A stretch of DNA of 64,000 nucleotides from assembly GCA_965261615.1 (NCBI GenBank), contig OZ253461.1, positions 57,046 through 121,045 of the forward strand. Reading direction: 5' to 3'. How positions within the stretch are numbered: the stretch's first letter is position 1; every line of letters starts with the position of its first letter. This document shows positions 20,014 through 59,242 of this stretch, piece after piece. The stretch is from Alphaproteobacteria bacterium (lineage in GTDB: Bacteria > Pseudomonadota > Alphaproteobacteria > Bin98). The notes under the pieces are model-generated. The model ran no database searches, was not told where the DNA came from, and saw only the letters and a program-made list of their open reading frames with translations. The translations under genes and the position numbers were made by a program.

Positions 20014-20045
20014 TTCTAAAGGTTTCTGTGATATATTAAGTAACG

Positions 20046-20927
20046 ATGAATTTTATCCTTATTTTCACTCTATGCATATCAACCTACTCGATTGGCGCTA
20101 GTTCTCACGCAACCACTTCTATTTGGAATGAGTGGAGCGTGGAAGAGCTCGCCTACTTTTTGCAATTCAACAGTGCTATTGTAGAGAGTTGTTCAACCGC
20201 CTTGCAGTATAACTATAAAAGCACTCACGAGACAAGAATCAAGACAGCTCTAAGTCACTTACACCAGCAATACACCGAAGCAGTCGTATCTTGTGCTGAA
20301 GCATTTTATGACGCTTTATACCCCCAGGAGCACGCTAAGGCAAGTGACACAGAGCCTCTCAGCTATCAATCACTGCCCTCCTTCAGGAAAAGTGCGCTCT
20401 TCCAGAACGACAAGTTCCACCCCGAATTAGCCCGTTTAATAAAAAAGCATGCTAGCAAAGACGGCCCAACCTGGAACACCGACCTCCCCAGTGACTATTT
20501 TCCCTTCGCAATCCTCTCTGAAAATAGTTTTGGTAGCATTACACACATCACAATCCCACTTTATATTGCAAAAAAGGGCAGCCTTCAACAAACACACATA
20601 CACAAACATGACGCAGAGGTCTTGATCCCCACAGACAGCACATTAGCCTTAAGCAAACACGCACTACTGACCATAGAAACCGGAGCCATATTTATATTTG
20701 CAAAAATCGCCATTTCCCCTTTAACTAAAGCCCTGTCTCAGAAGCTATCTTTTACCGCATACGAAACAAAAAGATCGCCCACATCACCCTTAGAAGCACG
20801 TCCGCGTAGTCAACAGATAGAGCTCTGTCTCGCACAGCTCTATCAGCATCGCCCAAAGTCTTCTCCAAGCGCAACACCTGACCTTATAAGACCGGAGCCA
20901 CCCACAGCTACACTTATAAAATTTTAA
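20046..20927 (+). CDS. Family-A secreted paralog 1 (293 aa)
   Basis: Signal peptide MNFILIFTLCISTYSIGASSHA. Conserved blocks SCAEAFYDAL, LFQNDKFHPELARLIKKH, IPLYI, HIHKHDAEVLIPT, GAIFIFAKI, SFTAYETK, and a C-terminus IRPEPPTATLIKF. Confidence 0.7.
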   Translation: MNFILIFTLCISTYSIGASSHATTSIWNEWSVEELAYFLQFNSAIVESCSTALQYNYKSTHETRIKTALSHLHQQYTEAVVSCAEAFYDALYPQEHAKASDTEPLSYQSLPSFRKSALFQNDKFHPELARLIKKHASKDGPTWNTDLPSDYFPFAILSENSFGSITHITIPLYIAKKGSLQQTHIHKHDAEVLIPTDSTLALSKHALLTIETGAIFIFAKIAISPLTKALSQKLSFTAYETKRSPTSPLEARPRSQQIELCLAQLYQHRPKSSPSATPDLIRPEPPTATLIKF

Positions 20928-21084
20928 TAGATAATTTGGAAGGAAGCTACCCACCCTGTATACCCCCCAGATAAGGCCCCTACTGACAAGCCTTTTAGGT
21001 TTGAAAGCTTGCGCACACCGCCGGATATTCAGAGGCAGCGATAAAATAAGTTCCTTAACAGAGCTTTCTGTGATAAACTGCGTA

Positions 21085-22050
21085 ATGATGAATTTTACCC
21101 TTATTTTTACTCTATGCATATCAACCTACTCAATTGGCGCTAGTTCTCACACAACCACTTCTGTTTGGGATGGATGGGGCATAACAGAACTCGCAACCTT
21201 TTTGCGATGCAACAATCCTTGTCTCAAGTGTTTTTCAGCCGCCTTACAGTATAACTACAACAGTAAGCACGAAGACAATATCAAAGAGGCCCTAGGGCAC
21301 GTACACCGGCAGATCACCGAGGCGATAGAATCTTGCGCTAAAGCATTCTACAATGCTTTACGCCACCTCCCGGCCCCAAATACGGGAACCGCCTCTACTG
21401 AACACACCGCATTACTCTCCCGTCAACCATTGTCCGCCCATCAGTCATTGCCTGACCTCGAAGCAAGAGAGCTCTTCAAAAGTGGCATGATCCACCCAGA
21501 TTTAGATCGTTTAATAAAACAATATGCTAAAATACAGCCTTCTTGCTGGAACTCACGCCTCGACAACTTAACAAAATACTTTGAGTGCATAAAGTTCGAG
21601 CGAAGTAATGCTGAAAACATTTTACACATATCGCTTCCACTTTATATAGTAGACACGAACGACCATCAGTTAACACAAACACACATAAGCAAACGTGACG
21701 CAAACACCTTAATCCCCACAAACAGCACATTAGTTTTTAACTCAGACGCACTGCATGCCGCAAACACCGGAGCTATATTTGTATATGCAAAAATTACCGT
21801 TGACTCTCTATTGAGACTCTTGGGTAAGAAACTATCTTTTATCGCATATGAGACAAAAGCATCGCCGACATCACCTCTAAAAGCAAGACCAGAAGACGCA
21901 AAGTTTGCCCAAAGGATACAGGAAGAGTGCGAATACCTAACCCAACTCAGCACCCCCCCAAAGCACTCCCTCAAGGAAGCACCAGAGCAAGCATCGAACA
22001 CCACCAGGCAGGAGCCACCAACAGATACACTGATAGCCATTGACTCTTAG
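21085..22050 (+). CDS. Family-A secreted paralog 2
   Basis: MMNFTLIFTLCISTYSIGASSHT... with SCAKAFYNAL, LFKSGMIHPDLDRLIKQ, LPLYI, THISKRDANTLIPT, GAIFVYAKI, SFIAYETK, and a C-terminus TRQEPPTDTLIAIDS. Confidence 0.7.
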   Translation: MMNFTLIFTLCISTYSIGASSHTTTSVWDGWGITELATFLRCNNPCLKCFSAALQYNYNSKHEDNIKEALGHVHRQITEAIESCAKAFYNALRHLPAPNTGTASTEHTALLSRQPLSAHQSLPDLEARELFKSGMIHPDLDRLIKQYAKIQPSCWNSRLDNLTKYFECIKFERSNAENILHISLPLYIVDTNDHQLTQTHISKRDANTLIPTNSTLVFNSDALHAANTGAIFVYAKITVDSLLRLLGKKLSFIAYETKASPTSPLKARPEDAKFAQRIQEECEYLTQLSTPPKHSLKEAPEQASNTTRQEPPTDTLIAIDS

Positions 22051-22185
22051 ACAGGTTTCCCCCATACACCTCGTCCTGCAAGGGACGGCCTGTTCTCCAT
22101 GCGACATCTCGGGCATCACAACAAACCGCATATCCCAAAACACATATAAACTTGACTTTCTGTGCGTTTAAAGTATAATAAGGTT

Positions 22186-23151
22186 ATGATGAAATTTATG
22201 TTTATTGTTACACTACTCATTTCTACTTGCTCTGTCGCAGCTAGTATAGAGCCCCCCTCGTCAAAGTGGGAAGGGTGGGACCTACCAAATCTAGCTACAT
22301 TTTTAAAAACATTCGCAACTCCCGTTACGGCTCTTTCGCACGCCTTGGAGCATCCCAGTTTAGAGGCCTCCACTTCAGAGCAAGAGGGATGGGGTTTAGT
22401 CAATCTAACTACGAGTTTAAGACAATACGCACCTCCCATTAATTATCTGTTGGACTCACTGGGTTGCCCCAATCAGTCTAAGCACTCGAAAAACATAAAA
22501 GAAGCACTCACAGCTCAACTCCAGTGCACCACCCAGTATGTAGAATCCTGCGCCAAAGCATTCTATGCTTTATACCTCCAAACACAGTATAAAAACTCCT
22601 CTAATGAAACAACACCATTACTTACCGGTCAACCATTGATAGCCTTAGATGAGAGTGAACTCTTCAAAAATGCTGAGCTTCACCCAACACTCTCCAATTT
22701 AATTGAAGAGTACGCATGCCCAACGTTTACTGACGTCAAGCCACACCCCGCCCAATTAGGAGACCCCTTTCCTTGCGTAAGATACTGTAGCGATGCAAAG
22801 GCTCAAACCGCAAGCATCGGAGTCCCTCTGTATATATTAGAAAAACACATACTCTATCTACAAAAAACCCACCTAGATATACAAACGGCAGATGCCTTGA
22901 TTCCCACAAGCAGCCCTCCCGCAACTATCGAGAGCGCGCTCTGCTCAGTATACTCCGGTGCCGTATTTATATATGCAGTTGTCCCCATTGCGCCCCGCTC
23001 TTCCATATCGTTTATCGCATACGAAACACAACCTCATCCTGAATCACCTCTACATGAAATCTCTGAAAACCACACAGAATTCAGAAAAGCAATAGAGCGC
23101 TGTGTACAGTCCCAGCATCAGATTTATGTATCTCAATTGAACCACCAATAG
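22186..23151 (+). CDS. Family-A secreted paralog 3 (divergent)
   Basis: MMKFMFIVTLLISTCSVAAS... with SCAKAFYALY, LFKNAELHPTLSNLIEEY, VPLYI, GAVFIYAV, SFIAYETQ. Confidence 0.65.
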   Translation: MMKFMFIVTLLISTCSVAASIEPPSSKWEGWDLPNLATFLKTFATPVTALSHALEHPSLEASTSEQEGWGLVNLTTSLRQYAPPINYLLDSLGCPNQSKHSKNIKEALTAQLQCTTQYVESCAKAFYALYLQTQYKNSSNETTPLLTGQPLIALDESELFKNAELHPTLSNLIEEYACPTFTDVKPHPAQLGDPFPCVRYCSDAKAQTASIGVPLYILEKHILYLQKTHLDIQTADALIPTSSPPATIESALCSVYSGAVFIYAVVPIAPRSSISFIAYETQPHPESPLHEISENHTEFRKAIERCVQSQHQIYVSQLNHQ

Positions 23152-23347
23152 TTATACTTATCGGACTCTAATTGAATAGTCTGGGGCGTTTCCCCCCGTT
23201 TAATGGTGGGTACGCCCTAGATCAGGCTCCCACTGCCAAGCCTTTTTGATTTGAAAGCTTGCGCATGCTACCGAAAGGATGAGCAAATACAGCAAAAATA
23301 TAAACTAAGTAGGGGGCTAGCATTTTTTGTGATATAACTACTGTACG

Positions 23348-24187
23348 ATGAAATTTATACTTATATTTACACTATTCATATCAGGCTACTCTGTCGCAGC
23401 TAGTTCAGACGCATACTCTTCAGTGTGGACAGGATGGGGCGTCGCAGATCTCGCAACCTTTTTAAAATACAACAGTGGTTGTGTAAACAGTTTGTCAGTC
23501 GCCTTACAACATAAATATAACAGTGATCATGAATCAAACATCAAGGAAGCTCTAACGCACTTACACCAGCAATACACCGATGCAGTAGTGTCTTGCGCTA
23601 AAGCATTTTATGACTCTTTATTCCTCCAAGAGAAGACTACACTCAGCTACCAACCACTACCTTCCTTCAAGAAAAATGATCTTTTTAAAAACGACAAATT
23701 CCACCCGGACTTAGAGCGTTTAATAAAAAAACACAGCACAAAGAGTCCAGTGTGGAACCCTCGCCTCAACGAATTACAAGACTACTACCACCGATTAAGG
23801 GTCTATCGAAATACTTTGCGCGAGGTGACACACATCGAGATTCCACTTTATATAGAAAGCAAGAGCAACCATCAGTTAACGCACAGACACATAAGCAAAC
23901 GTGACGCAAGTGCCTTGAACCCGACATCAAGAACATTAGCTTTTACAAAAGATGCACAGCTTACCGCACACAACGGGGCTACATTTATATTTGCAAGAAT
24001 CGCCGTCCACCCTATGAGTTTTTCTCTGCGGTTTAAACGCCTTTCATTTACCGCATACGAAACACAATCTCAGCCTGAATCACCCCTAAAGGCAAGCCCA
24101 GAAGACATAGGGTTTTGCAAACTAGTCGCACAAGAGTGCGAAGCACTAGCGAAGCACAGCAAAACCACAAGTCGAATCTACAGATAG
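23348..24187 (+). CDS. Family-A secreted paralog 4
   Basis: MKFILIFTLFISGYSVAASSDA... with SCAKAFYDSL, LFKNDKFHPDLERLIKKH, IPLYI, RHISKRDASAL, GATFIFARI, SFTAYETQ. Confidence 0.7.
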   Translation: MKFILIFTLFISGYSVAASSDAYSSVWTGWGVADLATFLKYNSGCVNSLSVALQHKYNSDHESNIKEALTHLHQQYTDAVVSCAKAFYDSLFLQEKTTLSYQPLPSFKKNDLFKNDKFHPDLERLIKKHSTKSPVWNPRLNELQDYYHRLRVYRNTLREVTHIEIPLYIESKSNHQLTHRHISKRDASALNPTSRTLAFTKDAQLTAHNGATFIFARIAVHPMSFSLRFKRLSFTAYETQSQPESPLKASPEDIGFCKLVAQECEALAKHSKTTSRIYR

Positions 24188-24364
24188 GCACTTATAGGCA
24201 TTTAATTGGATAATTTGGGACATTTTCCCCCCGTTTAGTGGTGGGTACGCCCTAGATCAGGCTCCCATTGCCAAGCCTTTTAGCTTTGAAAGCTTCATAG
24301 GATGACAAGCACATCAAATACATTATGTGGACTTTTAGAGTGTTCTATGCTATAAGTTGTTACT

Positions 24365-25243
24365 ATGAAGCTGATCCTTATATTGACACTATTTATATCT
24401 ACCTATTCTATCGGCGCTAGTTCACACGCAGCCACTTCAGTTTGGAGTGGGTGGAACATAGAAGAGCTCGCCTCCTTTTTACAAAGCAAACAGGCTGTAC
24501 TAAAGAGTTGTTCAGCCGCCTTGCAGTATAACTATGAAAGTGATCACGGGCCAAACATCAAGGAAGCCCTAAGGCACTTACACAGGCAATACACCGAAGC
24601 CGTCGTATCTTGCGCTAAAGCATTTTATACTGCATGCACCCAAGAACAGGAGGGCAAATCTTCCACCACTCACAGCACGTCGTTACTCCCCCGCAAGTCA
24701 TTACCACGCTTAGAGGAAAAAGAACTCTTCAAAAATGGCAAGTTCCATCCCGCCTTAGCCCGCTTAATACAGGCACATGATATCCAAGAACACGAGTCTT
24801 GGAACGGGCGCCTCGACCACTTAACTGACCATTTCTCAGCCATGTCTTTCATTACAGATGGTTTTGACGACATTACGCACATCTGTATTCCACTTTACAT
24901 AATAGACAAGAGCAGCCACCGGTTAACGCAAACGCATATAAGCAAAAGTGACGCAAACATCTTGCTCTCCATAAAAAGCCCATTAGCCTTTAACAAAGAA
25001 GCGCTGCTTACCGCACACACCGGTGCCGTATTTATATATGCACAAATCGCCGTTAACTTTTGGCATAGAACCCTGTGTAAGCGCCTGTCGTTTATCGCAT
25101 ACGAAACACAACCTCATCCTGAATCACCTCTACAGGAAATCTCTGAAGACGACACAAATCGTCGCCAAGAAATAGAGAAAGAAGTCCAACATCTAAGAAA
25201 GATCAGAGACGCCTCAGAGCCACCCACAGATGCACTTAATTAA
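24365..25243 (+). CDS. Family-A secreted paralog 5
   Basis: MKLILILTLFISTYSIGASSHA... with SCAKAFYTAC, LFKNGKFHPALARLIQAH, IPLYI, THISKSDANIL, GAVFIYAQI, SFIAYETQ. Confidence 0.7.
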   Translation: MKLILILTLFISTYSIGASSHAATSVWSGWNIEELASFLQSKQAVLKSCSAALQYNYESDHGPNIKEALRHLHRQYTEAVVSCAKAFYTACTQEQEGKSSTTHSTSLLPRKSLPRLEEKELFKNGKFHPALARLIQAHDIQEHESWNGRLDHLTDHFSAMSFITDGFDDITHICIPLYIIDKSSHRLTQTHISKSDANILLSIKSPLAFNKEALLTAHTGAVFIYAQIAVNFWHRTLCKRLSFIAYETQPHPESPLQEISEDDTNRRQEIEKEVQHLRKIRDASEPPTDALN

Positions 25244-25284
25244 CTTCAGTTAGATTAAAATTTTCTGTGATATAATCTCACACG

Positions 25285-26235
25285 ATGAAATTTATACTCA
25301 TATTTACACTCTTCCTCTCAACTTATTCTATCGGTGCTAGTTCACATGCAGACGATTCTGTTTGGGAGGAATGGAGTGTAACAGAACTCGCCAATTTTTT
25401 GAGGGACAAAAGCAGTATGCTGAACTGCTTTTCAGTGGCCTTACAACGTAGCTATGCAAATGATCACGAGGATAATATCAAGCAAGCTCTGACACACCTG
25501 CATCAGAAACATACCCAAGCGTTAGAGTCGTGTGCTGGAGCGTTCTACCGTACTTTACTCCTCCAAAATCCAAATACGACAACAAACTCTTCTGCACACT
25601 CAACATTACTCCCCCGCAAACCACTGCCGCTCTTAGACGAAAGTGAGCTCTTCAAAAACGGTAAATTTCACCCCGATTTCGCTCGCTTAGTAAAAAAACA
25701 TTGCAGCAGAGAGCGCTCTACCTACAACACACGCCTTATCCACGAACAAGACTACCTGCCCTTCATTGCCTGCATCCGCAATATTTATGGCGAAATTATA
25801 TACATGGAAATCCCTCTTTATATAATAAACAAGAGCAGCCATCAATTCACACACACTCACATAAGCAAACGTAACGCAAAAACTTTAATCCCCAAAGAGG
25901 GCACACCGTCTTTTCTAAAAAGCGCTCTATCCACAACACACACCGGGGCCATATTTATATTTGCAAAAATCTCCTTTCGCTCTCTCTTTAACACTCTATC
26001 TTTTAGCGCATATGAAACAAAGGCATCACCTACTGCACGCCTCAAAGCACGACCAAAAGACAAGGAATTTAGCAAAACAATAGAGCAAGGGCTCGACTAT
26101 CTAGCAAAGATGTTAAAAAAAGCAGAAACATCGAGCCCTCAGAAACACCCAGGGCCTTCTCCCAGCACCACCTCTAAGAAAACACCTGACATCACAAGAC
26201 AAGAGCCACCAACAGGTGTACTTATAAACTTTTAG
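25285..26235 (+). CDS. Family-A secreted paralog 6
   Basis: MKFILIFTLFLSTYSIGASSHA... with SCAGAFYRTL, LFKNGKFHPDFARLVKKH, IPLYI, THISKRNAKTL, GAIFIFAKI, SFSAYETK, and a C-terminus ITRQEPPTGVLINF. Confidence 0.7.
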   Translation: MKFILIFTLFLSTYSIGASSHADDSVWEEWSVTELANFLRDKSSMLNCFSVALQRSYANDHEDNIKQALTHLHQKHTQALESCAGAFYRTLLLQNPNTTTNSSAHSTLLPRKPLPLLDESELFKNGKFHPDFARLVKKHCSRERSTYNTRLIHEQDYLPFIACIRNIYGEIIYMEIPLYIINKSSHQFTHTHISKRNAKTLIPKEGTPSFLKSALSTTHTGAIFIFAKISFRSLFNTLSFSAYETKASPTARLKARPKDKEFSKTIEQGLDYLAKMLKKAETSSPQKHPGPSPSTTSKKTPDITRQEPPTGVLINF

Positions 26236-26271
26236 TTGCCCCCCCCTTTTTCTCTGTGATACACTTATGCG

Positions 26272-27201
26272 ATGAAATTTATACTTATATTTACCCTATT
26301 CATATCAACCTATTCTATAGCCGCCAGTTCACACGCAAACGATTCTATTTGGGAGGGGTGGAGCACAACAGAAATCGCTTCCCTTTTAAGACGCACCATG
26401 CCTTGTGTAGACGCTGTTTCATCCGCCTTGCGGTATAACTATAAAAGTGATCATGAGACAAGCATCAAGAAAGCTCTAGAACACCTCCACCAGCAAAACA
26501 CCAAAATCGTAGAATCTTGTGCTCAAGCGCTCTACGAAACTTTACTTCTCCAAGAGCAAGCAAAGGCAAGCAAAACAACACCTCCCAGCAGCTATCAACC
26601 ACTGCCATCCTTCAAGAAAAGCGATCTCTTCAAAGCGGGCAAACTCCACCCCAGCTTATCTCGTTTCATAAAACAGCATGGGAACAAAGACACACATAAA
26701 TGGAACCCAAAACTCAACCACTTAAGAAACTATTTTAAGGTAGGGTTCACTCCAAACGCTAATGGCGAAATTATAGAAGTGGAACTCCCTCTTTATATAA
26801 TAAAAAAGAACGACTGTCAGTTAACGCAAACGCACATAAGCAAACGTGACGCAAACACCTTAATCTCCACAGACAGCACATTAGCCTTTGTCAAAGACGC
26901 TCTACAAACCACAGAAACAGGAGCCATATTTATATATGCTAAAATCACCCTTCAGCCTCTATTGAGACTGCTGAATGGAACCTGCTCTTTTTCCGCATAT
27001 GAAACAAAACCATCTCCCCTATCACGCCTAAAAGCACGCCCAAAAGACATACAATTTAGCAAAGAAATAGAGCAAGCGTGCGCAGATCTAGCAAAGATCA
27101 GCAAAAAAGAAATAAGTCGGCCCCCCAGCAGAACACCTGAGCCCACGACTGACGTCACAAGGCCAGAGCTACCAACCGGTATACTTATAACTTTTTGTTA
27201 G
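26272..27201 (+). CDS. Family-A secreted paralog 7
   Basis: MKFILIFTLFISTYSIAASSHA... with SCAQALYETL, LFKAGKLHPSLSRFIKQH, LPLYI, THISKRDANTL, GAIFIYAKI, SFSAYETK, and a C-terminus TRPELPTGILITFC. Confidence 0.7.
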   Translation: MKFILIFTLFISTYSIAASSHANDSIWEGWSTTEIASLLRRTMPCVDAVSSALRYNYKSDHETSIKKALEHLHQQNTKIVESCAQALYETLLLQEQAKASKTTPPSSYQPLPSFKKSDLFKAGKLHPSLSRFIKQHGNKDTHKWNPKLNHLRNYFKVGFTPNANGEIIEVELPLYIIKKNDCQLTQTHISKRDANTLISTDSTLAFVKDALQTTETGAIFIYAKITLQPLLRLLNGTCSFSAYETKPSPLSRLKARPKDIQFSKEIEQACADLAKISKKEISRPPSRTPEPTTDVTRPELPTGILITFC

Positions 27202-27230
27202 ATTTAAAATTTTCTGTGATACAGTACATC

Positions 27231-28160
27231 ATGAAATTTATACTTATATTTACCCTATTCATATCAACCTATTCTATCGGCGCTAGTTCACATGCAGCTA
27301 CTTCAGCCTGGGAAGGGTGGAGCGTAACAGAACTCGCAACATTTTTACAATACAACAGTCGTCGTATAAACGGCCTTTCAACTGCCTTACAATATAAATT
27401 TAACAGCACTCATGCGACAAACATCAAGGAAGCTCTAGCGAACTTGCACCGGCAATACACCGATGCGGTAGTGTCTTGCGCTAAAGCATTTTATGATGCT
27501 TTATTCCTCCAAGAAAAGACTGTACTCAGCTATCAACCACTACCTGCCTTCAAGAAAGATGATCTTTTTAAAAACGACAAATTCCACCCGGACTTAGAGC
27601 GTTTAATAAAAAAACACAGCACACAGAGCCCAATGTGGAACCCTTGCCTCGACGAATTACAAGACTACTTCAACCACGTAGGGGTACTCCATAATGACTC
27701 TCACGAGATAACATACATCGAAATTCCACTTTATATAGAAAGCAAGAGCAGCCATCAGCTAACACAAAAACATATAAGCAAACGTGACGTAAATGCCTTG
27801 AGCCCTACAGAACGCACATTAGCTTTTAACAAAGACGCTCTACGAACCACAGACACCGGCGCCGTATTTATATATGCAAAAATCGCGGTCCACCCTATGA
27901 AAATTCTGTTTAAGACCCTGTCTTTTATAGCATATGAAACAAAGCCATCTCCCACATCACCCCTAAAGGCACGCCCAAAAGACATGGCATTTTGCCAAAA
28001 AATGGAGAAAAAGTGCGCAGAGCTAGCAAAGCTCAGCAAAAAAATAAATGAGTCCGCCTCCCAGCAACAACCCGATCCTTCCTCAAAAAGCACAACCCCT
28101 GAGGAAACGTCTGACATCACAAGGCAGGAGCCACCAACAGGTATACTTGTAAACTTTTAG
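27231..28160 (+). CDS. Family-A secreted paralog 8
   Basis: MKFILIFTLFISTYSIGASSHA... with SCAKAFYDAL, LFKNDKFHPDLERLIKKH, IPLYI, KHISKRDVNAL, GAVFIYAKI, SFIAYETK, and a C-terminus ...KINESASQQQPDPSS...SDITRQEPPTGILVNF. Confidence 0.7.
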   Translation: MKFILIFTLFISTYSIGASSHAATSAWEGWSVTELATFLQYNSRRINGLSTALQYKFNSTHATNIKEALANLHRQYTDAVVSCAKAFYDALFLQEKTVLSYQPLPAFKKDDLFKNDKFHPDLERLIKKHSTQSPMWNPCLDELQDYFNHVGVLHNDSHEITYIEIPLYIESKSSHQLTQKHISKRDVNALSPTERTLAFNKDALRTTDTGAVFIYAKIAVHPMKILFKTLSFIAYETKPSPTSPLKARPKDMAFCQKMEKKCAELAKLSKKINESASQQQPDPSSKSTTPEETSDITRQEPPTGILVNF

Positions 28161-29300
28161 TTGGATAATCTGGGGCGTTATCCACCTTGTAATTAACAAG
28201 GTGGAGGCACCTTATATATGACCACACACTTACGGTTTTCATTTCACCCACTGCAAATGCAGAGACCCAACTATAGCCAAAACATAAACTAACTTGTCTT
28301 ACGGCCTGATCTATGATAATATCTCTCCATGATGCAACTTATACTTATATTTACCCTCTTCATATCAACCTATTCTGTGGCCGCCAGTTCACAGGAAGAC
28401 GGTTCTATTTGGGAGGGATGGAACACAGCAGATCTTGCCTCCTTTTTAAGACGCGTCGTGCCTTGTGTAGACGCTATTTCATCCGCCTTGCAGTATAACT
28501 ATAACAATAAGCATGAGCAACACATCAAGAAAGCTCTAACGCACCTCCACCAGCAAAACACCAAAGCCGTAGAGTCTTGTGCTCATGCGCTCTACGATGC
28601 TTTATTCCTCCAAGAGCAAGCCAAGGAAGGTGCAACAACACCTCTCAGCAGCTATCAACAACTGCCCTCCTTCAAGAAAAGTGAGCTCTTCAAAGCGGGC
28701 AAACTCCACCCCAGATTATCTCGTTTCATAAAACAGCATGGGAGCAACAAAAGACATCTGGGCAACCCACAACTCGACAGCTTAACGGACTATTTTTGTG
28801 GGGCATATTTCACTCCAAACGCCGCTGGCGAAATTATAGAAGTGGAAATCCCTCTTTATATAATAAAAAAGAACGACTGTCCATTAACGCAAACGCACAT
28901 AAGCACACACGACGCAAACACCTTAACCCCAGGCACATTAGTCTGGAACCAAGACGCTCTACTAACAACAGAAACCGGAGCCATATTTATATATGCAAAA
29001 ATCAACCTTCCACCTCTGTTGAGACTCTTTAGTGGAACCTGCTCTTTTGCTGCATATGAAACAAAACCATCTCCCACACCACGCCTAAAAGCAAGCCCAG
29101 AAGGCATAAAATTCAGCCAGAAAATAGAGCAAAAGTGCGCATATCTAGCAACGCTCAGCATAGAACAAAGATCAGCAGCACAAAGATCAATGAGTCGGCC
29201 CCCCAGCCACAACCAGACCCTTCCTCAAGAAGCATAACTCCTGAGCAAACGTCTGACATCACAAGGCAGGAGCCACCAACAGGTATACTTATAGAATTTT
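28161..29300. repeat. Copy 1 of a ~1.14 kb near-identical tandem duplication (intergenic element plus a family-A gene)
   Basis: 28161-29300 is ~99% identical to 29301-~30440. The two begin ttggataatctggggcgttatccaccttgtaattaacaaggtgg and ttgaataatctggggcgttatccacctttaattaacaaggtgg respectively. Confidence 0.8.
28329..29237 (+). CDS. Family-A secreted paralog 9, C-terminus frameshifted relative to its duplicate
   Basis: MMQLILIFTLFISTYSVAASSQ... The protein is identical to the first module of 29470..32319 until ~29160. There a ~16-nt deletion inside the 84-bp linker repeat shifts the frame. The ORF then ends ...SMSRPPSHNQTLPQEA*, while the canonical family C-terminus (SDITRQEPPTGILIEF*) lies in another frame and ends at ~29301. 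Confidence 0.6.
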   Translation: MMQLILIFTLFISTYSVAASSQEDGSIWEGWNTADLASFLRRVVPCVDAISSALQYNYNNKHEQHIKKALTHLHQQNTKAVESCAHALYDALFLQEQAKEGATTPLSSYQQLPSFKKSELFKAGKLHPRLSRFIKQHGSNKRHLGNPQLDSLTDYFCGAYFTPNAAGEIIEVEIPLYIIKKNDCPLTQTHISTHDANTLTPGTLVWNQDALLTTETGAIFIYAKINLPPLLRLFSGTCSFAAYETKPSPTPRLKASPEGIKFSQKIEQKCAYLATLSIEQRSAAQRSMSRPPSHNQTLPQEA

Positions 29301-30440
29301 AGTTGAATAATCTGGGGCGTTATCCACCTTTAATTAACAAGGTGGAGACACCTTATATATGACCACACACTTACGGTTTTCATTTCACCCACTGCAAATG
29401 CAGAGACCCAACTATAGCCAAAACATAAACTAACTTGTCTTACGGCCTGATCTATGATAAAATCTCCCCATGATGCAACTTATACTTATATTTACCCTCT
29501 TCATATCAACCTATTCTGTGGCCGCCAGTTCACAGGAAGACGGTTCTATTTGGGAGGGATGGAACACAGCAGATCTTGCCTCCTTTTTAAGACGCGTCGT
29601 GCCTTGTGTAGACGCTATTTCATCCGCCTTGCAGTATAACTATAACAATAAGCATGAGCAACACATCAAGAAAGCTCTAACGCACCTCCACCAGCAAAAC
29701 GCCAAAGCCGTAGAGTCTTGTGCTCATGCGCTCTACGATGCTTTATTCCTCCAAGAGCAAGCCAAGGAAGGTGCAACAACACCTCTCAGCAGCTATCAAC
29801 AACTGCCCTCCTTCAAGAAAAGTGAGCTCTTCAAAGCGGGCAAACTCCACCCCAGATTATCTCGTTTCATAAAACAGCATGGGAGCAACAAAAGACATCT
29901 GGGCAACCCACAACTCGACAGCTTAACGGACTATTTTTGTGGGGCATATTTCACTCCAAACGCCGCTGGCGAAATTATAGAAGTGGAAATCCCTCTTTAT
30001 ATAATAAAAAAGAACGACTGTCCATTAACGCAAACGCACATAAGCACACACGACGCAAACACCTTAACCCCAGGCACATTAGTCTGGAACCAAGACGCTC
30101 TACTAACAACAGAAACCGGAGCCATATTTATATATGCAAAAATCAACCTTCCACCTCTGTTGAGACTCTTTAGTGGAACCTGCTCTTTTGCTGCATATGA
30201 AACAAAACCATCTCCCACACCACGCCTAAAAGCAAGCTCAGAAGGCATAAAATTCAGCCAGAAAATAGAGCAAAATTGCGCATATCTAGCAACGCTCAGC
30301 ACAAAGATAAATGAGTCAGCTCCCCAGCAACAACCAGACCCTTCAAGCATAGAGCAAGAGTGTGCAGACCAAAAGATCAGCAGCACAAAGATCAATGAGT
30401 CGGCCCCCCAGCCACAACCAGACTCTTCTATTTGGGCGGG
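29301..30440. repeat. Copy 2 of the ~1.14 kb tandem duplication
   Basis: See copy 1 at 28161..29300. A third, partial copy follows at ~30428-31230 (tctatttgggcgggatggaacacagcagatcttgcc... matches 28403 onward). Confidence 0.8.
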
Positions 30441-32319
30441 ATGGAACACAGCAGATCTTGCCTCCTTTTTAAGACGCGTCGTGCCTTGTGTAGACGCTAT
30501 TTCATCCGCCTTGCAGTATAACTATAACAATAAGCATGAGCAACACATCAAGAAAGCTCTAACGCACCTCCACCAGCAAAACGCCAAAGCCGTAGAGTCT
30601 TGTGCTCATGCGCTCTACGATGCTTTATTCCTCCAAGATAAGGAAGGTGCAGCAACACCTCTCAGCGGCCATCAAACACTGCTATCCCTCAAGAAAAGTG
30701 AGCTCTTCAAAGCGGGCAAACTCCACCCCAGATTATCTCGTTTCATAAAACAGCATGGGAGCAACAAAAGACATCTGGGCAACCCACAACTCGACAGCTT
30801 AACGGACTATTTTTGTGGGGCATATTTCACTCCAAACGCCGCTGGCGAAATTATAGAAGTGGAAATCCCTCTTTATATAATAAAAAAGAACGACTGTCCA
30901 TTAACGCAAACGCACATAAGCACACACGACGCAAACACCTTAACCCCAGGCACATTAGTCTGGAACCAAGACGCTCTACTAACAACAGAAACCGGAGCCA
31001 TATTTATATATGCAAAAATCAACCTTCCACCTCTGTTGAGACTCTTTAGTGGAACCTGCTCTTTTGCTGCATATGAAACAAAACCATCTCCCACACCACG
31101 CCTAAAAGCAAGCCCAGAAGGCATAAAATTCAGCCAGAAAATAGAGCAAAATTGCGCATATCTAGCAACGCTCAGCACAAAGATAAATGAGTCAGCTCCC
31201 CAGCAACAACCAGACCCTTCAAGCATAGAGCAAGAGTGTGCAGACCAAAAGATCAGCAGCACAAAGATCAATGAGTCGGCCCCCCAGCCACAACCAGACT
31301 CTTCAAGCATAGAGCAAGAGTGTGCAGACCAAAAGATCAGTAGCACAAAGATAAATGAGTCGGCCCCCCAGCCACAACCAGACTCTTCAAGCATAGAGCA
31401 AGAGTGTGCAGACCAAAAGATCAGTAGCACAAAGATAAATGAGTCGGCCCCCCAGCAACAACCAGACCCTTCCTCAAGCACAGCCACCTCAGACTGGGAC
31501 GGGTGGAACATCGCAGACCTCGCCACCTTTTTACAGTGCCACCAACCAACTGCCGCCAACCTTGCAAGGGCATCTAAAAAAAGCTATACAAGTGATCACT
31601 GGAATTATATCGCATACAACCTGACCGCAATACACCAGAGGTTCTCTCGAGCGATATCCTCCTGTGCCCAAGCATTCTATGATGCTTTACAAGACCAATC
31701 TGCGCCACTGCCTGTTTTAAAGCACGATGAACTGTACAAAAATGGTAAGCTTCACCCCGCTTTATCCCGTTTAGTAAAAAAACATGCCAACCGAAGGTAT
31801 AAGATTGGCAATTCACGCACCCGCCGACCGGGAGATCTATTCTCAGTCCTGTATTCCAATCGCAATGGTTGGGGTCTAACCTCACACATATGCATCCCCC
31901 TTTATATATATAAAAGCGATAGCCTTCAATTAACAAGCCCCCACATTAGCAAGTATCAGGAAGCAACCTTACTACCCCCCAGAGGCCCTATTGCTTCAGA
32001 GGCCAATGCACTACTCACGGCTCACGATAGCGCCCTTTTTATATATGCAGAAATCCCTCTTCTCCCCCTATTGGGACCTGTGCGGCTTGTCGCATATCAA
32101 ACAAAACAACAGCCAGGATCACGCTTAACAAACAATGCTGACCACCAAAAATTCACACAACGTATAGAACAGTCTATCCGCGAAATCCCTCAAACGTCCG
32201 CTGCCTCTCATTCAGATCTATTGCCACACCCACTAGCAGCACAAACGCGCACACTGCTGTCTCCACACCAACTAGCAGCAAACGCTATCCGCGCCACATA
32301 TACGCCTGGACAAGTCTGA
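29470..32319 (+). CDS. Tri-modular family-A fusion protein (949 aa): three family-A modules joined by 28-aa repeat linkers
   Basis: Module 1 is nearly identical to 28329..29237. Module 2 (from IWAGWNTADLASFL, no signal peptide) is nearly identical again. 84-bp (28-aa) tandem linker repeats SIEQECADQKISSTKINESAPQPQPDSS follow. Module 3 is divergent (SDWDGWNIADLATFL...SCAQAFYDAL...LYKNGKLHPALSRLVKKH...IPLYIY...PHISKYQEATL...ALFIYAEI...VAYQTK). Confidence 0.6.
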   Translation: MMQLILIFTLFISTYSVAASSQEDGSIWEGWNTADLASFLRRVVPCVDAISSALQYNYNNKHEQHIKKALTHLHQQNAKAVESCAHALYDALFLQEQAKEGATTPLSSYQQLPSFKKSELFKAGKLHPRLSRFIKQHGSNKRHLGNPQLDSLTDYFCGAYFTPNAAGEIIEVEIPLYIIKKNDCPLTQTHISTHDANTLTPGTLVWNQDALLTTETGAIFIYAKINLPPLLRLFSGTCSFAAYETKPSPTPRLKASSEGIKFSQKIEQNCAYLATLSTKINESAPQQQPDPSSIEQECADQKISSTKINESAPQPQPDSSIWAGWNTADLASFLRRVVPCVDAISSALQYNYNNKHEQHIKKALTHLHQQNAKAVESCAHALYDALFLQDKEGAATPLSGHQTLLSLKKSELFKAGKLHPRLSRFIKQHGSNKRHLGNPQLDSLTDYFCGAYFTPNAAGEIIEVEIPLYIIKKNDCPLTQTHISTHDANTLTPGTLVWNQDALLTTETGAIFIYAKINLPPLLRLFSGTCSFAAYETKPSPTPRLKASPEGIKFSQKIEQNCAYLATLSTKINESAPQQQPDPSSIEQECADQKISSTKINESAPQPQPDSSSIEQECADQKISSTKINESAPQPQPDSSSIEQECADQKISSTKINESAPQQQPDPSSSTATSDWDGWNIADLATFLQCHQPTAANLARASKKSYTSDHWNYIAYNLTAIHQRFSRAISSCAQAFYDALQDQSAPLPVLKHDELYKNGKLHPALSRLVKKHANRRYKIGNSRTRRPGDLFSVLYSNRNGWGLTSHICIPLYIYKSDSLQLTSPHISKYQEATLLPPRGPIASEANALLTAHDSALFIYAEIPLLPLLGPVRLVAYQTKQQPGSRLTNNADHQKFTQRIEQSIREIPQTSAASHSDLLPHPLAAQTRTLLSPHQLAANAIRATYTPGQV
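30301..30425. repeat. 84-bp coding tandem repeat, ~1.5 copies (linker between modules 1 and 2)
   Basis: This DNA encodes KINESAPQQQPDPSSIEQECADQKISSTKINESAPQPQPDSS. Confidence 0.7.
31178..31478. repeat. 84-bp coding tandem repeat, ~3.5 copies (linker between modules 2 and 3)
   Basis: Repeated agcatagagcaagagtgtgcagaccaaaagatcag(c/t)agcacaaagat(c/a)aatgagtcggccccccagccacaaccagactcttca, with units starting near 31221, 31305 and 31389. Confidence 0.75.
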
Positions 32320-33140: not shown

Positions 33141-33214
33141 ATCATAGGTTGGGGAGGCAGCGCGATACTCAGAAGTTATCAGTCTGCTTTAAGGCCGGCA
33201 CTGCTCTTTCAATC

Positions 33215-53450: not shown

Positions 53451-53771
53451 TAATTATACTCAAAATTTCATCAATTGCGAAAATCTAGCCACAAAGATGC
53501 CCTCTAACAAACACAGACTCCTTAATCAGACAAGATCCACCACGCTGCACAACCCTTTATGACACACCTCTCTATGGTTTTTAGTATATCCCGCACCTAA
53601 TGCAAATTCCGCATAACGTCCACATGCTATCCTTCAGCGTACTATAGAGCTCTCTAGCACTCACCAACATCCCAGCCGAAGAGGTTTAATGCAGCCTCTT
53701 ACAATACACTTGTACTCTTAGTCTCACAAACTAGAAGTTGCCAAGACAACGCAAAACATATATAATTTACC

Positions 53772-54878
53772 ATGTTCCTGAAATTCTTGCTTACTGTATT
53801 TCATATTAGCGCAACCAGCCTTATCGCGGCAAACGGTACATCAGATTACGAGTTAACTATACAACCACCTCATTTATGCTCTCAATGCGCGCAGCCAGCG
53901 CTCTCACAGGAGTTCCATAATACTCTAGCTTTCTCCAAACAGCCACTCAAAGTACAAGCTGCCCATCTCTTACTGTACTCCTACCAAGCAGGCATTTTTC
54001 TTCTGCTTGCACAACAGTCACGCACAGATAGACACTGGAAAAACATTCAAAAAGCTCTTGGCTCACTGTATCTCAATGAGCTCGAACTACTCCATGAGCT
54101 TAGCCACATCACTTACGAGCGCTTTTACAGGCGACTATGCCCCGACTCCTTAAAAAACGCCCCTGTTTACAGCGAGCATAACCTTCGCCCAGACTTTTTC
54201 GAGTTTCTAACAAAACATGCCACACACCACTCAGTGAGCCTCTGTGTAAATATTCGTAACGCTCAAAGAATAATTCCTCTTTGGCGCCCTCGCACCTCAA
54301 TATTGGGAAACATCAATTCACTGTGTATTTGTCTGTACACAATAGATGCTGTTTCCGCACAACCCATCATACACTCTGCCCCAGCGACATCAGCACAAGT
54401 AGATCCCGAATCAATCCCCGAAGCAAGCACGCCTGCCACTTTAGCCAGCCTCTTCAGCGCCATAGTTACGCCACCTCCTCACAGCGGGACACACTACACC
54501 CTAGTCGAGGTACCTCTAACCACAAACAGCCCTTTGAACTTTTTTATCATAAAAGAAGGAGAACCTTGCTCATTGCCACGTTGCTTCGCTGACATGCCAG
54601 ACCGCATACGCAACCTGCGTTCCGTATTACAAAAAGACTGGTCTCTAAGCTCACAAAATAGCCACTGTTTTCGCAAACAAATCGACGCAGACGCACCCTT
54701 TACAACCCCTATTAAAACCACAAGTTTTTTTGAAACACCACACACCAACCTCATGCACCAAGAACCCTCTGCCTCCCTTCCTCCCTTTCCGTCTCAAGCG
54801 GTAGTTACTACCACCCTCCCCCAAACTATCTCAGCTAAAGAGTCACAATCTCTACAGCCAGGAGAATTCTGGATTTAA
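53772..54878 (+). CDS. Family-B secreted paralog 1 (368 aa)
   Basis: Signal MFLKFLLTVFHISATSLIAA. It shares QPLK.QA.HLL.Y...A......Q....D.HW..I..AL.SL...E...L..L...TY and RPDF..FL..HA with 56820..57848. Confidence 0.6.
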   Translation: MFLKFLLTVFHISATSLIAANGTSDYELTIQPPHLCSQCAQPALSQEFHNTLAFSKQPLKVQAAHLLLYSYQAGIFLLLAQQSRTDRHWKNIQKALGSLYLNELELLHELSHITYERFYRRLCPDSLKNAPVYSEHNLRPDFFEFLTKHATHHSVSLCVNIRNAQRIIPLWRPRTSILGNINSLCICLYTIDAVSAQPIIHSAPATSAQVDPESIPEASTPATLASLFSAIVTPPPHSGTHYTLVEVPLTTNSPLNFFIIKEGEPCSLPRCFADMPDRIRNLRSVLQKDWSLSSQNSHCFRKQIDADAPFTTPIKTTSFFETPHTNLMHQEPSASLPPFPSQAVVTTTLPQTISAKESQSLQPGEFWI

Positions 54879-54884
54879 TGCACC

Positions 54885-55712
54885 ATGACTATAATCGCCT
54901 TAGCACTCTCACTGCTCTCATCTATCTCCGCTGCCACAACATCAATCTGGGAGGGGAGCAGCATTGAAGCCCTCGCCGCCTGCTTGAGATTCCACCCACA
55001 GTCTGTGGCTAATCTTTCAGCCGCCCTACAGCTCAAACCTACAAATGCTCACGAAATAAACATCAAGAGCAGCCTAACAGCAATACACCAACAATACACA
55101 AAAATGCTCACAAGCTGCGCTCAAGCATTTTATGACGCTTTAGACGCCAATGAGCAAAAGCGGCAAGCTACTCCCACGACCCCGCTGCTCACAAAAAAAG
55201 TAATCCCTGCTTTAGAGTCCAGTGAGCTCTTCAAAAACGACAAAGTTCATCCAGCCTTATCTCCTTTTGTCCAAAAGTATGCAAAAAAAACCGCACCGAC
55301 CCTAAAGACCCCATGGGACCCAAAAGAAATTTTTGATCTCGTATTCTTCGATCGCACTATCTTTAGGCAGCTTTCTCACATAGAAGTGCCCCTATATATA
55401 TTAGATACAAGCGAACATACACTACCCCGCACTATGAGCATGCAGGACGCAAACAACTTAATCCCTCCATCAAGCCCACTAGCGTCTAACGAACTGTGTG
55501 CTCTAAGCGCAGCTCCAACACTTATATACGCTAAAATTCCAGTTTTGTCCCAATCTGAAGCCATAACATTTGTCACCTATGAAATAAACCCACAAACCAC
55601 ATCACGCCTACAGGAACGATCTAAATACACAGCGCGCAGAAAGGAGATTGCACAAACTTGTCAAGGATACGCCAGGTTAGAAAAGCTCTCTAAGGCGACA
55701 CCCCTTCAGTAA
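54885..55712 (+). CDS. Family-A secreted paralog 11 (divergent; no conserved C-terminus)
   Basis: SIWEGSSIEALAACL, SCAQAFYDAL, LFKNDKVHPALSPFVQKY, VPLYI, TLIYAKI, FVTYE. Confidence 0.6.
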   Translation: MTIIALALSLLSSISAATTSIWEGSSIEALAACLRFHPQSVANLSAALQLKPTNAHEINIKSSLTAIHQQYTKMLTSCAQAFYDALDANEQKRQATPTTPLLTKKVIPALESSELFKNDKVHPALSPFVQKYAKKTAPTLKTPWDPKEIFDLVFFDRTIFRQLSHIEVPLYILDTSEHTLPRTMSMQDANNLIPPSSPLASNELCALSAAPTLIYAKIPVLSQSEAITFVTYEINPQTTSRLQERSKYTARRKEIAQTCQGYARLEKLSKATPLQ

Positions 55713-55813
55713 AATGCACCTCTGGCTAATGGTCCTTAAAACTCATCAATTTTGCAGAAAGATAGCCGTATATTAAAAGTTTGACAATGGACACAGGTGT
55801 GATATAATTTTAT

Positions 55814-56629
55814 ATGGTTATGTTTGTATTTACATTCACGCTACTGACATCTATCAGCTCTATCGCTGCAACTTTAGTTTGGTCAGGATGGAGCGCTTCA
55901 GAAATGGCCTCCTTTTTAAGCAATCAACAAGCTGTTATCTCTCATTTGTCAGCGGCGATGCAGCATGACTACAAAGGGGTCCACCGGGCCAACCTCCACC
56001 AAACCCTAACTGAACTACACCAGAAGTACACCACACCAACGACATCTTGTGCCAAAGCGTTCTATACCACTGTATACCGCCAAGAGCAGGCCATCGCTAA
56101 CCTTTACGCCGAGGAGCACACGCCTCTGCTCCTCCCCAATAAGCTCCCACATATAGCACCCTGCGACCTCTTCAAAAATGATAAGTTTCACCCAATTTTA
56201 GATCATTTAATAAAAGAGCATCCCCTAACACAACGTTTCCTAAATCCACGCCTCTACAGCCTCATAGGGCCCTTCAGCATCACAATCACCAATAGGCAAG
56301 ATGGGCGAGACTCACATATATCAGTTCCCCTTTACATATTCAGCAAAGAACACAATCGTTTGGAAAGCCCCTACATTAGCGCGCGTGATGCCGAAACCTT
56401 AATCCCCTCAACAGGCCCCCGATCCTCTGAGGTAAACGCACAAAAAACTGTACATTCTGGTGCTATATTTATATACGCTAGAGTCCCCATTGCAAACTTA
56501 TCTGAAGAAGTGACATTTGTCGCATATGAAACAAAAGCTCAACCTGATTCACTCTTAAACGGAAACACAAAAGCCGCACAAGCGATAGAAGCCGCTGTAG
56601 AAAATTTGCCCCACCCTCCCCAAAGCTAG
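55814..56629 (+). CDS. Family-A secreted paralog 12 (divergent)
   Basis: LVWSGWSASEMASFL, SCAKAFYTTV, LFKNDKFHPILDHLIKEH, VPLYI, YISARDAETLIPS, GAIFIYARV, TFVAYETK. Confidence 0.6.
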   Translation: MVMFVFTFTLLTSISSIAATLVWSGWSASEMASFLSNQQAVISHLSAAMQHDYKGVHRANLHQTLTELHQKYTTPTTSCAKAFYTTVYRQEQAIANLYAEEHTPLLLPNKLPHIAPCDLFKNDKFHPILDHLIKEHPLTQRFLNPRLYSLIGPFSITITNRQDGRDSHISVPLYIFSKEHNRLESPYISARDAETLIPSTGPRSSEVNAQKTVHSGAIFIYARVPIANLSEEVTFVAYETKAQPDSLLNGNTKAAQAIEAAVENLPHPPQS

Positions 56630-56819
56630 CCCCTCTCTCAAGCAACAGTTGCCAACATAACACCCTCAACCCCAAGAGGTTTCTCGAAAAAGGGTTTTCA
56701 CCATCATGCACAACCGTCTCTTTTTAATATTGAGCGCCGAACACCTGTCAAGACTTATCACGCATTAGCAAAAGTGATATAACCCTTGATTTTAATTAAA
56801 AAATTATATATAATTTCCT

Positions 56820-57848
56820 ATGTTTATTATATTCGTTATTGCAGCAATAAGCCTTACTTCACTTTGTGCAGCCAGCGCTCCACACGACTTTACTCCCCAT
56901 ACGTTTGCGCAGCTACCTCTTAAAACTCAAGCCTACCACCTCTTGAGCTACGCGCAGGAGGCACAGCGACTTGACCAGCTTGCCGCACACCATCATGCAG
57001 ACCCCCACTGGCCCCTAATCCACCAGGCCCTGTGCTCATTAGCTAAAAACGAAATGCTTGCTCTTCAACAGCTAGGTACCGTCACTTATAAAATGCATTA
57101 TGAGAGCAAGTGCCCAGAGGCACACAAGCTTCAGACCTGCATTAACGACTATCATATACGCCCAGACTTTGCTGCATTCTTGAAATCACACGCCGCAAAT
57201 GACGGGCCCACTCCACGAGCAAAAATTGGTGACGCCCAAGGCTTTATGCCCGTTACAGCATACCAATTCAATTGGTTTGGGTCCTTCAAGTCTTTCTGTT
57301 TTTGCCTCTACCACCTAAGCAGCACAAGTGGTAAAGAAATCATAAACAAAATACCCCCAGCCACAACAGCCATCAAAGGAACTGACATCCCCACCTCAAG
57401 CACTCCCGCGACCTTACTTCACTTTTTTTCCACAGAGGTTAATCCGCCATCCCACAAACGACCTTATTATATACTAGCCGAAGTCCCATTCAACGCCAGC
57501 AGCCCTATAAACTACTTTATCGTAAAAGCCCACGCACCAGCCACACTACCAAGCGCTTTTGCTAAAATGCCTCAGGACATACACCTCATGCATACGCTCA
57601 TTAAGAAAAAAGGGGAAGTTTCAGACAAAAAAAAGGGAGTTCAGATACGCTACCCAGCAAAACCTAAACCTAGCTCAATCCACCAGACTACGTTACATTC
57701 AAACGCTTTAGCTATCCCTGCAACAGCTGAACCGAGCGAAAAACAAAAAACTCACCCCAAAAGATTCCCTCCGGAAAAAATACACACTTACCTGATCACC
57801 CCCAAGGATAACAGTGATCAAGATTCGCTCACGGCCACTTTCGTGTAG
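56820..57848 (+). CDS. Family-B secreted paralog 2 (342 aa)
   Basis: Signal MFIIFVIAAISLTSLCAASA. Paralogous to 53772..54878. Confidence 0.6.
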   Translation: MFIIFVIAAISLTSLCAASAPHDFTPHTFAQLPLKTQAYHLLSYAQEAQRLDQLAAHHHADPHWPLIHQALCSLAKNEMLALQQLGTVTYKMHYESKCPEAHKLQTCINDYHIRPDFAAFLKSHAANDGPTPRAKIGDAQGFMPVTAYQFNWFGSFKSFCFCLYHLSSTSGKEIINKIPPATTAIKGTDIPTSSTPATLLHFFSTEVNPPSHKRPYYILAEVPFNASSPINYFIVKAHAPATLPSAFAKMPQDIHLMHTLIKKKGEVSDKKKGVQIRYPAKPKPSSIHQTTLHSNALAIPATAEPSEKQKTHPKRFPPEKIHTYLITPKDNSDQDSLTATFV

Positions 57849-57872: not shown

Positions 57873-57910
57873 AAAAGCCCACTGCAATGCTATCGCAGTG
57901 GGCTTTTATC
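57873..57910. terminator. Hairpin terminator (aagcccactgcaatgctatcgcagtgggctttt)
   Basis: A 10-bp GC-rich inverted repeat agcccactgc/gcagtgggct with an A-tract upstream and a T-tract downstream. It sits between the convergent genes 56820..57848 (+) and 57958..58383 (-). Confidence 0.7.
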
Positions 57911-57957: not shown

Positions 57958-58383
57958 TTAAACCTGAAGATTTTCGCACGATTTTTCGTCAGCACTACAT
58001 TCAGGATTAACAAAATCACAACCTTTTAGCTCCTCCGTAGAACATTCATCCTCGTCGAGAATCGATTCGTCACCAGAACTCCACTTAGGCTCAACAGGCA
58101 CGAAAACCAGTCCCTCTGTCTTCTTCCTCTCCTCTATAACACGCTCAGCGTTTTGGAGATCCTGCAATTGCGCTTTCAGCGCTTTAACCTGACAAACCTT
58201 TTCCGCAAAAGCATAACTGTTCAAGCCTACACTTTTTACTAAGCAGTCCCTTTCTTTATCTAAACGCCCTTGTACAAGAGCGATCTCAGAAGCTAGAGCT
58301 TCCTCACTCCACTCTTCCGCATGCCCAGCAGCGCTGACTTGCGCTCCCAAAAGTATCAGCATCACACCTAACATATTCATCAT
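57958..58383 (-). CDS. Small secreted acidic Cys-containing protein
   Basis: True start MMNMLGVMLILLGAQVSAAG (signal peptide). The upstream MKWKF... extension in the ORF track runs through the promoter region. Confidence 0.5.
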   Translation of the reverse strand: MMNMLGVMLILLGAQVSAAGHAEEWSEEALASEIALVQGRLDKERDCLVKSVGLNSYAFAEKVCQVKALKAQLQDLQNAERVIEERKKTEGLVFVPVEPKWSSGDESILDEDECSTEELKGCDFVNPECSADEKSCENLQV

Positions 58384-58402
58384 AAAGTTTTCTCCTATGA
58401 TG

Positions 58403-58430
58403 ATTGTATCATAAGTCAAACGTCTTGCAA
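58403..58430 (-). promoter_or_regulatory. Sigma-70-like promoter TTGCAA-N16-TACAAT with AGGAGA RBS, upstream of 57958..58383
   Basis: Minus strand: ttgcaa (58425-58430), a 16-nt spacer, tacaat (58403-58408), AGGAGA (58391-58396), then ATGATG at 58378-58383. Confidence 0.55.
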
Positions 58431-58454
58431 ACAAACAAAAGCTAAACTTCCACT

Positions 58455-59171: not shown

Positions 59172-59190
59172 AAAGTTTTCTCCTATGATG

Positions 59191-59218
59191 ACTGTATCAT
59201 AAGTCAAACGTCTTGCAA
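59191..59218 (-). promoter_or_regulatory. Second copy of the TTGCAA-N16-TACAgT promoter cassette, upstream of 58455..59171
   Basis: ttgcaa at 59213-59218, a 16-nt spacer, tacagt at 59191-59196, AGGAGA, then ATGATG ending at 59171. The surrounding ~80 nt are identical to the copy at 58381-58458. Confidence 0.5.
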
Positions 59219-59242
59219 ACAACCAAAAGCTAAACTTCCACT

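Follow-up and report, generated by a model that had tools for sequence, protein, structure and literature searches.

We examined a cluster of four genes, B1, A13, A14 and B2, which lie in this order on the plus strand of a 64,000-nucleotide (nt) stretch of contig OZ253461.1 (the whole stretch is referred to below as the window) from an alphaproteobacterial genome of 1.47 Mb (GCA_965261615.1). A first reading, made from the letters alone and called here the sequence-only reading, had described the cluster as two different secreted families, A and B, interleaved in the order B-A-A-B and possibly joined in a functional partnership. Judged by profile comparison, A and B are one lineage-specific superfamily split into two very divergent branches, and we assign a probability of roughly 60% to the reading that the cluster arose by old tandem duplications within this exported superfamily, its four paralogs having a role as diversifying host-interface proteins. 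The apparent partnership of two families is thereby removed and replaced by one uncharacterized superfamily, from which the genome carries at least 17 predicted exported-protein genes.

All four open reading frames (ORFs) are present on the plus strand within 53772-57848, where the sequence-only reading had placed them (Table 1). B1 and B2 are indeed paralogs of each other (BLASTP, 34% identity over 296 aa, E value = 1e-54). Among the sequence blocks quoted as shared by the pair, D.HW..I..AL.SL, RPDF..FL..HA and NFFIIKE/NYFIVKA occur in both proteins; for QPLK.QA.HLL.Y, the leading Q is one residue off in B2. A13 and A14 are 35% identical (E value = 4e-40), and their assignment to family A was borne out by tblastn, in which each matched every member of the main A array of the window (E values of 1e-30 to 1e-52), the array from which the sequences for the A profile were taken. 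No further copy of B was found in the window by tblastn.

The relationship between A and B was evident with every profile method used. The HHalign comparison proposed by the sequence-only reading, run with the B pair against 11 A sequences, found the two related with a probability of 95.2% (E value = 2.5e-8, 177 columns), and a re-run gave a score of 56 (93%), compared with 13 to 19 (0.5% or less) for reversed and column-shuffled controls. Reciprocal searches with hidden Markov models (HMMs) covered all 316 window ORFs of 60 aa or more: a model built from A and a group of bridging paralogs, with B left out, ranked B1 (E value = 1.7e-7) and B2 (E value = 6.2e-6) directly after the A genes, the next ORF having an E value of 0.32, and the B model in return recovered A members at E values of 2.7e-8 and 9.2e-5. 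Pairwise searches gave fainter traces of the same relationship. With tblastn, B1 and B2 matched A6 (array member 25285-26235) at E values of 7e-4 and 1.3e-4, respectively, and the BLASTP match between B1 and A13 was weak, yet the conserved blocks were aligned in matching order. Furthermore, the bridging paralogs P0012 to P0015 matched A with a probability of 100% and B with a probability of 92.8% over 214 columns, approximately the whole mature protein. Three of the four (P0012 to P0014) are encoded outside the window on the 1,465,401-bp contig of the source genome and the fourth (P0015) on a metagenome contig, and they combine a B-like HSTHW motif with an A-like LFKNGK motif. A MAFFT alignment of A and B members was colinear over the full length. 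Profile-profile alignment, reciprocal HMM searches and bridging paralogs thus indicate that A and B are not two independent families, and hhalign and the reciprocal HMMs favor what the sequence-only reading had offered as its alternative, namely, that B is a very distant, longer version of the A fold. Because the two families are not independent, the idea of a partnership between them loses its premise.

Within the superfamily, B nevertheless stands apart from A. In a neighbor-joining tree, B1 and B2 formed a clade on a long branch (100% bootstrap), and A13, A14 and A3 made up a loose, outlying group within the A branch, in which they were not sisters of one another. B is 13 to 21% identical to the other members; it does not match the A motifs W..W, SCA.AFY, LFKN.K.HP, PLYI and SF.AYET and has motifs of its own (PLK.QA.HLL, D.HW, RPDF..FL..HA, C.CLY and STPATL). 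In a 16-sequence alignment, it retains few invariant positions (A, L, H and F, with a nearly invariant I and L). Since the A signature motifs are not kept, B is, on sequence grounds, a separate subfamily and not a member of A in the narrow sense. B shares with the A array of the window and with P0012 to P0014 its homology, the colinear alignment, a signal-like N-terminus and the layout of a promoter at the start codon, and it differs from them by a longer disordered tail. B1 and B2 would thus represent one deeply diverged branch, and A13 and A14 would be outliers of the branch that forms the array at 20 to 32 kb. A duplicated B-A unit was considered as the origin of the cluster and was rejected, given that A13 and A14 do not pair in the tree and that the order on the one strand is B-A-A-B.

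The ORFs of the cluster are unlikely products of base composition. The estimated probability of a stop-free run of at least 270 codons on the strand poor in T and G was about 3e-6. Because such runs are improbable and because paralogy is still visible between the proteins despite saturation at synonymous sites, a chance origin of the ORFs can be excluded on these estimates. The ratio of nonsynonymous to synonymous substitution rates (dN/dS) ranged from 0.39 to 0.96 among array members, with the highest value for the pair A7/A9, and was 0.54 for A13/A14. Between B1 and B2, synonymous sites are saturated (proportion of synonymous differences, pS, 0.76), and the protein identity is still 36%. Together, these values indicate that the family evolves fast around a core that is under constraint. 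One could also read the genes as fast-drifting, dispensable orphan ORFs, left over from an expansion that is now in decay as the genome shrinks; the dN/dS of up to 0.96 (A7/A9) would fit such a picture, as would the lack of homologs outside the lineage and the fact that gene callers appear to differ on the starts (A14 is called shorter, and the B1 form is missing from the collection). We consider this highly doubtful, since all four ORFs are intact (271 to 368 codons), the conserved blocks and 36% identity of B1/B2 have persisted at saturated synonymous sites, three of the start codons have each kept a near-consensus promoter exactly 5 nt away, and a second organism has both family members and this promoter layout.

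The sequence-only reading had given all four genes a TATAAT box at the ATG. This was true of B1, A14 and B2, each of which has an exact TATAAT ending 5 nt before the ATG, but not of A13, where the box position holds only TTTAAT, overlapping the TAA stop of B1, and the exact TATAAT occurs only within codons 2 to 4. In the 4.6-kb region, the three sites listed in Table 1 were the only plus-strand sites with at least 10 of 12 matches, and their offset to the gene start was identical; we infer from this that random placement cannot explain the shared offset of the three putative promoters. The 34 nt spanning promoter and start codon are 76% identical between B1 and B2 (repeat D3). No Shine-Dalgarno sequence was found upstream of B1, A14 or B2 nor upstream of A13. 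The marks of a leaderless unit (a -10 hexamer about 5 to 7 nt upstream and no Shine-Dalgarno sequence) are therefore present at B1, A14 and B2 but not at A13. This suggests that the B1, A14 and B2 mRNAs are leaderless, the simplest reading of a TATAAT 5 nt before the ATG with no Shine-Dalgarno sequence. A13 starts 7 nt past the B1 stop and has only TTTAAT upstream, so it is probably cotranscribed with B1. The proposed arrangement is that B1, A14 and B2 would each have a sigma-70-type promoter of their own and that A13 would be read from the B1 transcript; the hairpin downstream of B2 is a likely bidirectional terminator closing the cluster. In the protein collection, A14 is represented only by P0008, a 241-aa form that starts at Met31 and has lost the signal-like segment, and B1 is absent in its 368-aa form. 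The 12/12 promoter just 5' of 55814 argues for the longer A14, and public gene calls for the A/B family may be truncated.

The layout recurs well beyond the cluster: in the A array and at an orphan gene that ends at 19768 (in both cases as TGTGATATAAT, 8 nt upstream of the ATG), at tyrS (16756-18033, minus strand), where TAAAAT ends 5 nt ahead of the ATG, and upstream of a family member on another contig (L001, described below), where TATAAT, 5 nt and ATG follow each other as at the cluster. Because of this recurrence, the promoter-at-ATG layout is, as far as the sequences indicate, a habit of the lineage and not peculiar to the cluster. In Actinobacteria and Deinococcus, leaderless genes are familiar whose -10 box lies immediately before the start codon. 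The genes described here resemble them in having TATAAT 5 nt before the ATG and no Shine-Dalgarno sequence; the layout is known here from sequence alone and, being found also at tyrS, may be a genome-wide habit. Its consistency makes the lineage a possible heavy user of leaderless mRNAs. Clear Shine-Dalgarno sequences precede tolQ and a HesB-like gene, and the genome seems to mix leaderless and canonical starts. In the B-A-A-B locus, phase-variable repeats were looked for and rejected, only trivial two-copy repeats being present. Elsewhere, the promoter-like region (26225-26271) 5' of the A-family gene at 26272 contains eight consecutive C (ttgCCCCCCCCtttttctctgtgatacac); as a spacer of variable length, it could allow phase variation.

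These transcriptional features also bear on the idea that A-type and B-type proteins are partners in a heteromeric exported or surface complex and that the B-A-A-B layout serves their coexpression. The two types are adjacent on the same strand, and the 7-nt gap between B1 and A13, with the B1 stop lying within the only -10-like element of A13, suggests cotranscription and coupled translation; this tight junction is the one feature that hints at a partnership. Diverged paralogs often form hetero-oligomers, which lends the idea some general plausibility. However, with A and B being homologs, tandem duplication accounts for their adjacency, A14 and B2 are each preceded by a strong promoter of their own, and ten A genes stand in a row at 20046-32319 with no B among them. 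Moreover, A13 and A14 do not pair as closest relatives, which means that the layout did not come from duplication of a B-A unit, and we found no other genome with the family on a contig of sufficient length for a synteny comparison. We regard such a complex as unlikely. More doubtful still is the elaborate version in which A and B have each specialized as one type of subunit in a heteromeric assembly, secreted or on the surface, that has an undescribed fold and contacts host cells, the A copies being exchangeable variants of one subunit. Under the reading of the cluster as an array of diversifying paralogs, duplication and divergence would supply variants and not a fixed two-part complex.

The claim that all four proteins have signal peptides held up under a hydropathy heuristic, with a mean Kyte-Doolittle value of 2.1 to 3.3 in a 10-residue N-terminal window. 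Small residues follow the hydrophobic stretch in the four cluster proteins (IAA, CAA/ASA, SAA and IAA); the n-region of B2, A13 and A14 carries little or no charge. Across the 17 family members inspected, the heuristic found the features of a Sec type I signal peptide, and neither a later transmembrane-like segment nor a lipobox was seen by hydropathy and inspection. A lipoprotein was rejected because inspection of the four N-termini found no fitting lipobox ([LVI][ASTVI][GAS]C), the SLC of B2 having Leu at -1. At the other end of the proteins, many array members (e.g., 20046-20927, 25285-26235 and 27231-28160) have a conserved RQEPPTG(I/V)L(I/V)NF at the extreme C-terminus, and B1 and B2 end in GEFWI and TATFV, respectively. 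Candidate explanations for the hydrophobic/aromatic C-terminus are a sorting signal and duplicated DNA beside the next promoter.

Structure prediction with AlphaFold2 gave a model of A13 with a predicted local distance difference test (pLDDT) score of 75 and a predicted template modeling (pTM) score of 0.75 and a model of B2 with a pLDDT of 68 (mostly 60 to 92 by block over residues 30 to 260, with low values at residues ~132 to 140). The order of elements is alike in the two models: a pair of N-terminal helices comes first, followed by one long, one short and one further helix; next come a beta hairpin, a pair of helices and another hairpin, and a long helix ends the chain at the C-terminal side. 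Residues 270 to 342 of B2 are predicted to be disordered, and the additional length of B consists of the disordered tail and, in B1, of an N-terminal insert. B1 is laid out as a signal-like N-terminus, a core conserved up to about residue 280 and a tail rich in Pro, Ser, Thr and Gln, with a B1-specific insert of 25 residues containing a CSQC motif at residues ~27 to 52. Each protein of the family would accordingly be built from a Sec-type signal-like segment, a helical region, a small alpha/beta region of four strands and a helix at the C-terminus, and many members would end in a disordered Pro/Ser/Thr-rich tail. A beta-barrel outer-membrane family was rejected on the basis of this predicted architecture, which is helical with a small sheet.

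The superfamily is narrowly distributed. When 1.84 billion representative proteins were searched exhaustively with the A-profile HMM, nine were returned, eight of them from this genome and one from the ENA contig L001, a 1,990-bp contig with two tandem family members and a composition like that of the window (GC content 0.44, GC skew -0.25). A word-indexed search with the A profile found only two proteins, both from this genome; the same kind of search with B1 found nothing, B2 included, and is thus blind at ~35% identity. The B alignment had no match in the genome-contig and metagenome-contig collections by low-sensitivity scans, nor did the A alignment in the genome-contig collection. Exact look-ups of B1, B2, TyrRS (tyrosyl-tRNA synthetase) and P0012 in the contig index gave no record. 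In addition, the superfamily had no match in Pfam, NCBIfam, PADLOC or PDB, and a defense system was rejected for want of a PADLOC hit.

Among the housekeeping genes of the window are those for TimA/Tim44, TolQ-TolB, DksA and a long L21. Homologs of its TyrRS from named sources are alphaproteobacterial, at ~48% identity, and the closest homologs were found on an ENA contig (L002, contig set ERZ26859001, 67% identity) and in GCA_002238905.1 (L084, 56% identity). GCA_002238905.1 is a bin obtained from the sponge Aplysina aerophoba, Alphaproteobacterium bin98, which had the smallest genome in its study and only 34% of its genes in COGs (PMC5649159). On the prfB side of the cluster, a scan of metagenome contigs with release factor 2 (RF2) found relatives, none of which exceeded 50% identity. 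For the neighboring prfB, a programmed frameshift was rejected because the N-terminal region has no CTTTGAC and the ORF looks full length. Scans of the window for Rfam families and tRNAs found nothing. Judged by its relatives and its genome size, the organism is a small-genome, probably sponge-associated alphaproteobacterium.

Both relatives keep a backbone that runs from L21 through TolQ-TolB, an M16 peptidase, TyrRS, a 221-aa protein, RsmD, malic enzyme and Tim44 to DksA, and within that backbone neither L002 nor L084 has a member of the A/B family. In the window, the A array and orphan genes (18125-34102, ~16 kb) are located between TyrRS and a 223-aa gene, and other orphans (8586 to ~16700, ~8 kb) lie between the M16 peptidase and TyrRS. 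Given that the M16 peptidase, TyrRS, the 221-aa protein and RsmD are directly adjacent in the relatives, the paralog arrays appear to be lineage-specific islands set into an otherwise conserved gene order. This pattern tells against the view that the A/B proteins are ordinary periplasmic or envelope housekeeping proteins of the lineage, unrelated to a host. Signal-like N-termini with no further transmembrane segments do fit periplasmic proteins, but 15 or more fast-diverging copies would be unusual for housekeeping proteins of the envelope, which would also not be expected to be missing from relatives that have kept the backbone genes, and we consider this view very improbable.

Export and a host-interface role are what we infer for the superfamily as a whole. 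A parallel in kind is offered by the OMP-1/P28/Msp2 proteins of the Anaplasmataceae, alphaproteobacteria with small genomes and long tandem arrays of diverging exported paralogs; these are beta-barrel outer-membrane proteins with Pfam families. The small alphaproteobacterial genome and the long tandem arrays of diverging exported paralogs are common to both cases, whereas the A/B genes have no Pfam hit, have a predicted helical and small-sheet architecture and show no sign of an expression site or of a pseudogene-cassette system. The kind is thus familiar, that of a private, expanded, fast-evolving exported family in a reduced, symbiont-like genome, and the family, possibly with its fold, is undescribed. 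Several points weigh against our reading of the cluster. The function is drawn from sequence inference only, and host association is taken from relatives and genome size. The signal peptides were judged by hydropathy only, several of them having no positively charged n-region, and the dN/dS near 1 in one pair could reflect relaxed constraint and not diversification. Furthermore, B outside this genome was sought only with low-sensitivity tools, and the B2 model was made from an alignment that included A sequences, so that the common topology is partly built in. If the organism is a sponge symbiont like its nearest named relative, the A/B proteins are reasonable candidates for the host interface, and their structures are worth solving for a possibly new fold.

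Table 1. Positions in the window of the four-gene cluster, its putative promoters and terminator, and the related A-family array
Feature	Position	Strand	Description
B1 promoter-like site	53738..53766	+	TTGCCA, 17-nt spacer, TATAAT; 11/12 matches
B1	53772..54878	+	368 aa
A13	54885..55712	+	275 aa, divergent A-family member
A14 promoter-like site	55781..55808	+	TTGACA, 16-nt spacer, TG-extended TATAAT; 12/12 matches
A14	55814..56629	+	271 aa, divergent A-family member
B2 promoter-like site	56786..56814	+	TTGATT, 17-nt spacer, TATAAT; 10/12 matches
B2	56820..57848	+	342 aa
Hairpin	57873..57907		16 bp, G+C-rich, with an A run and a T run on either side; terminator scan, inverted repeat I3
Main A-family array	20046..32319	+	10 genes, including the 949-aa gene with three fused A domains; same superfamily

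Within the main A array, the 949-aa gene (29470-32319, plus strand) consists of three complete A domains joined by repeated linker units (STKINESAPQPQPDSS and SIEQECADQKIS). In its first domain and in its upstream region, it is nearly the same as the gene just before it (28329-29237), which points to a very recent duplication. Recently duplicated orphans also occur just beyond the cluster on the minus strand (57958-59590), where the N-terminus MKWKFSF.LFARRLTYDT.IIGENFMMNMLGVMLILL is common to two ORFs whose upstream DNA is also identical; the 115-aa ORF at 59243-59590 is a near-exact repeat of the C-terminal 115 residues of a 263-aa ORF. A further set of six tandem genes of ~400 to 470 aa lies at 38453-46303 on the minus strand, one with a trypsin-like peptidase domain and a PDZ domain and another with a subthreshold PDZ match. 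A similar array adjoins dksA on the bin98 contig (L084, 1-5946); unlike the A/B family, this expansion occurs in relatives as well. Finally, GC skew was between -0.15 and -0.35 in each 2-kb block of the window, whatever the orientation of the genes, a very strong strand asymmetry; its magnitude in the contigs of the relatives was ~0.16 to 0.19.

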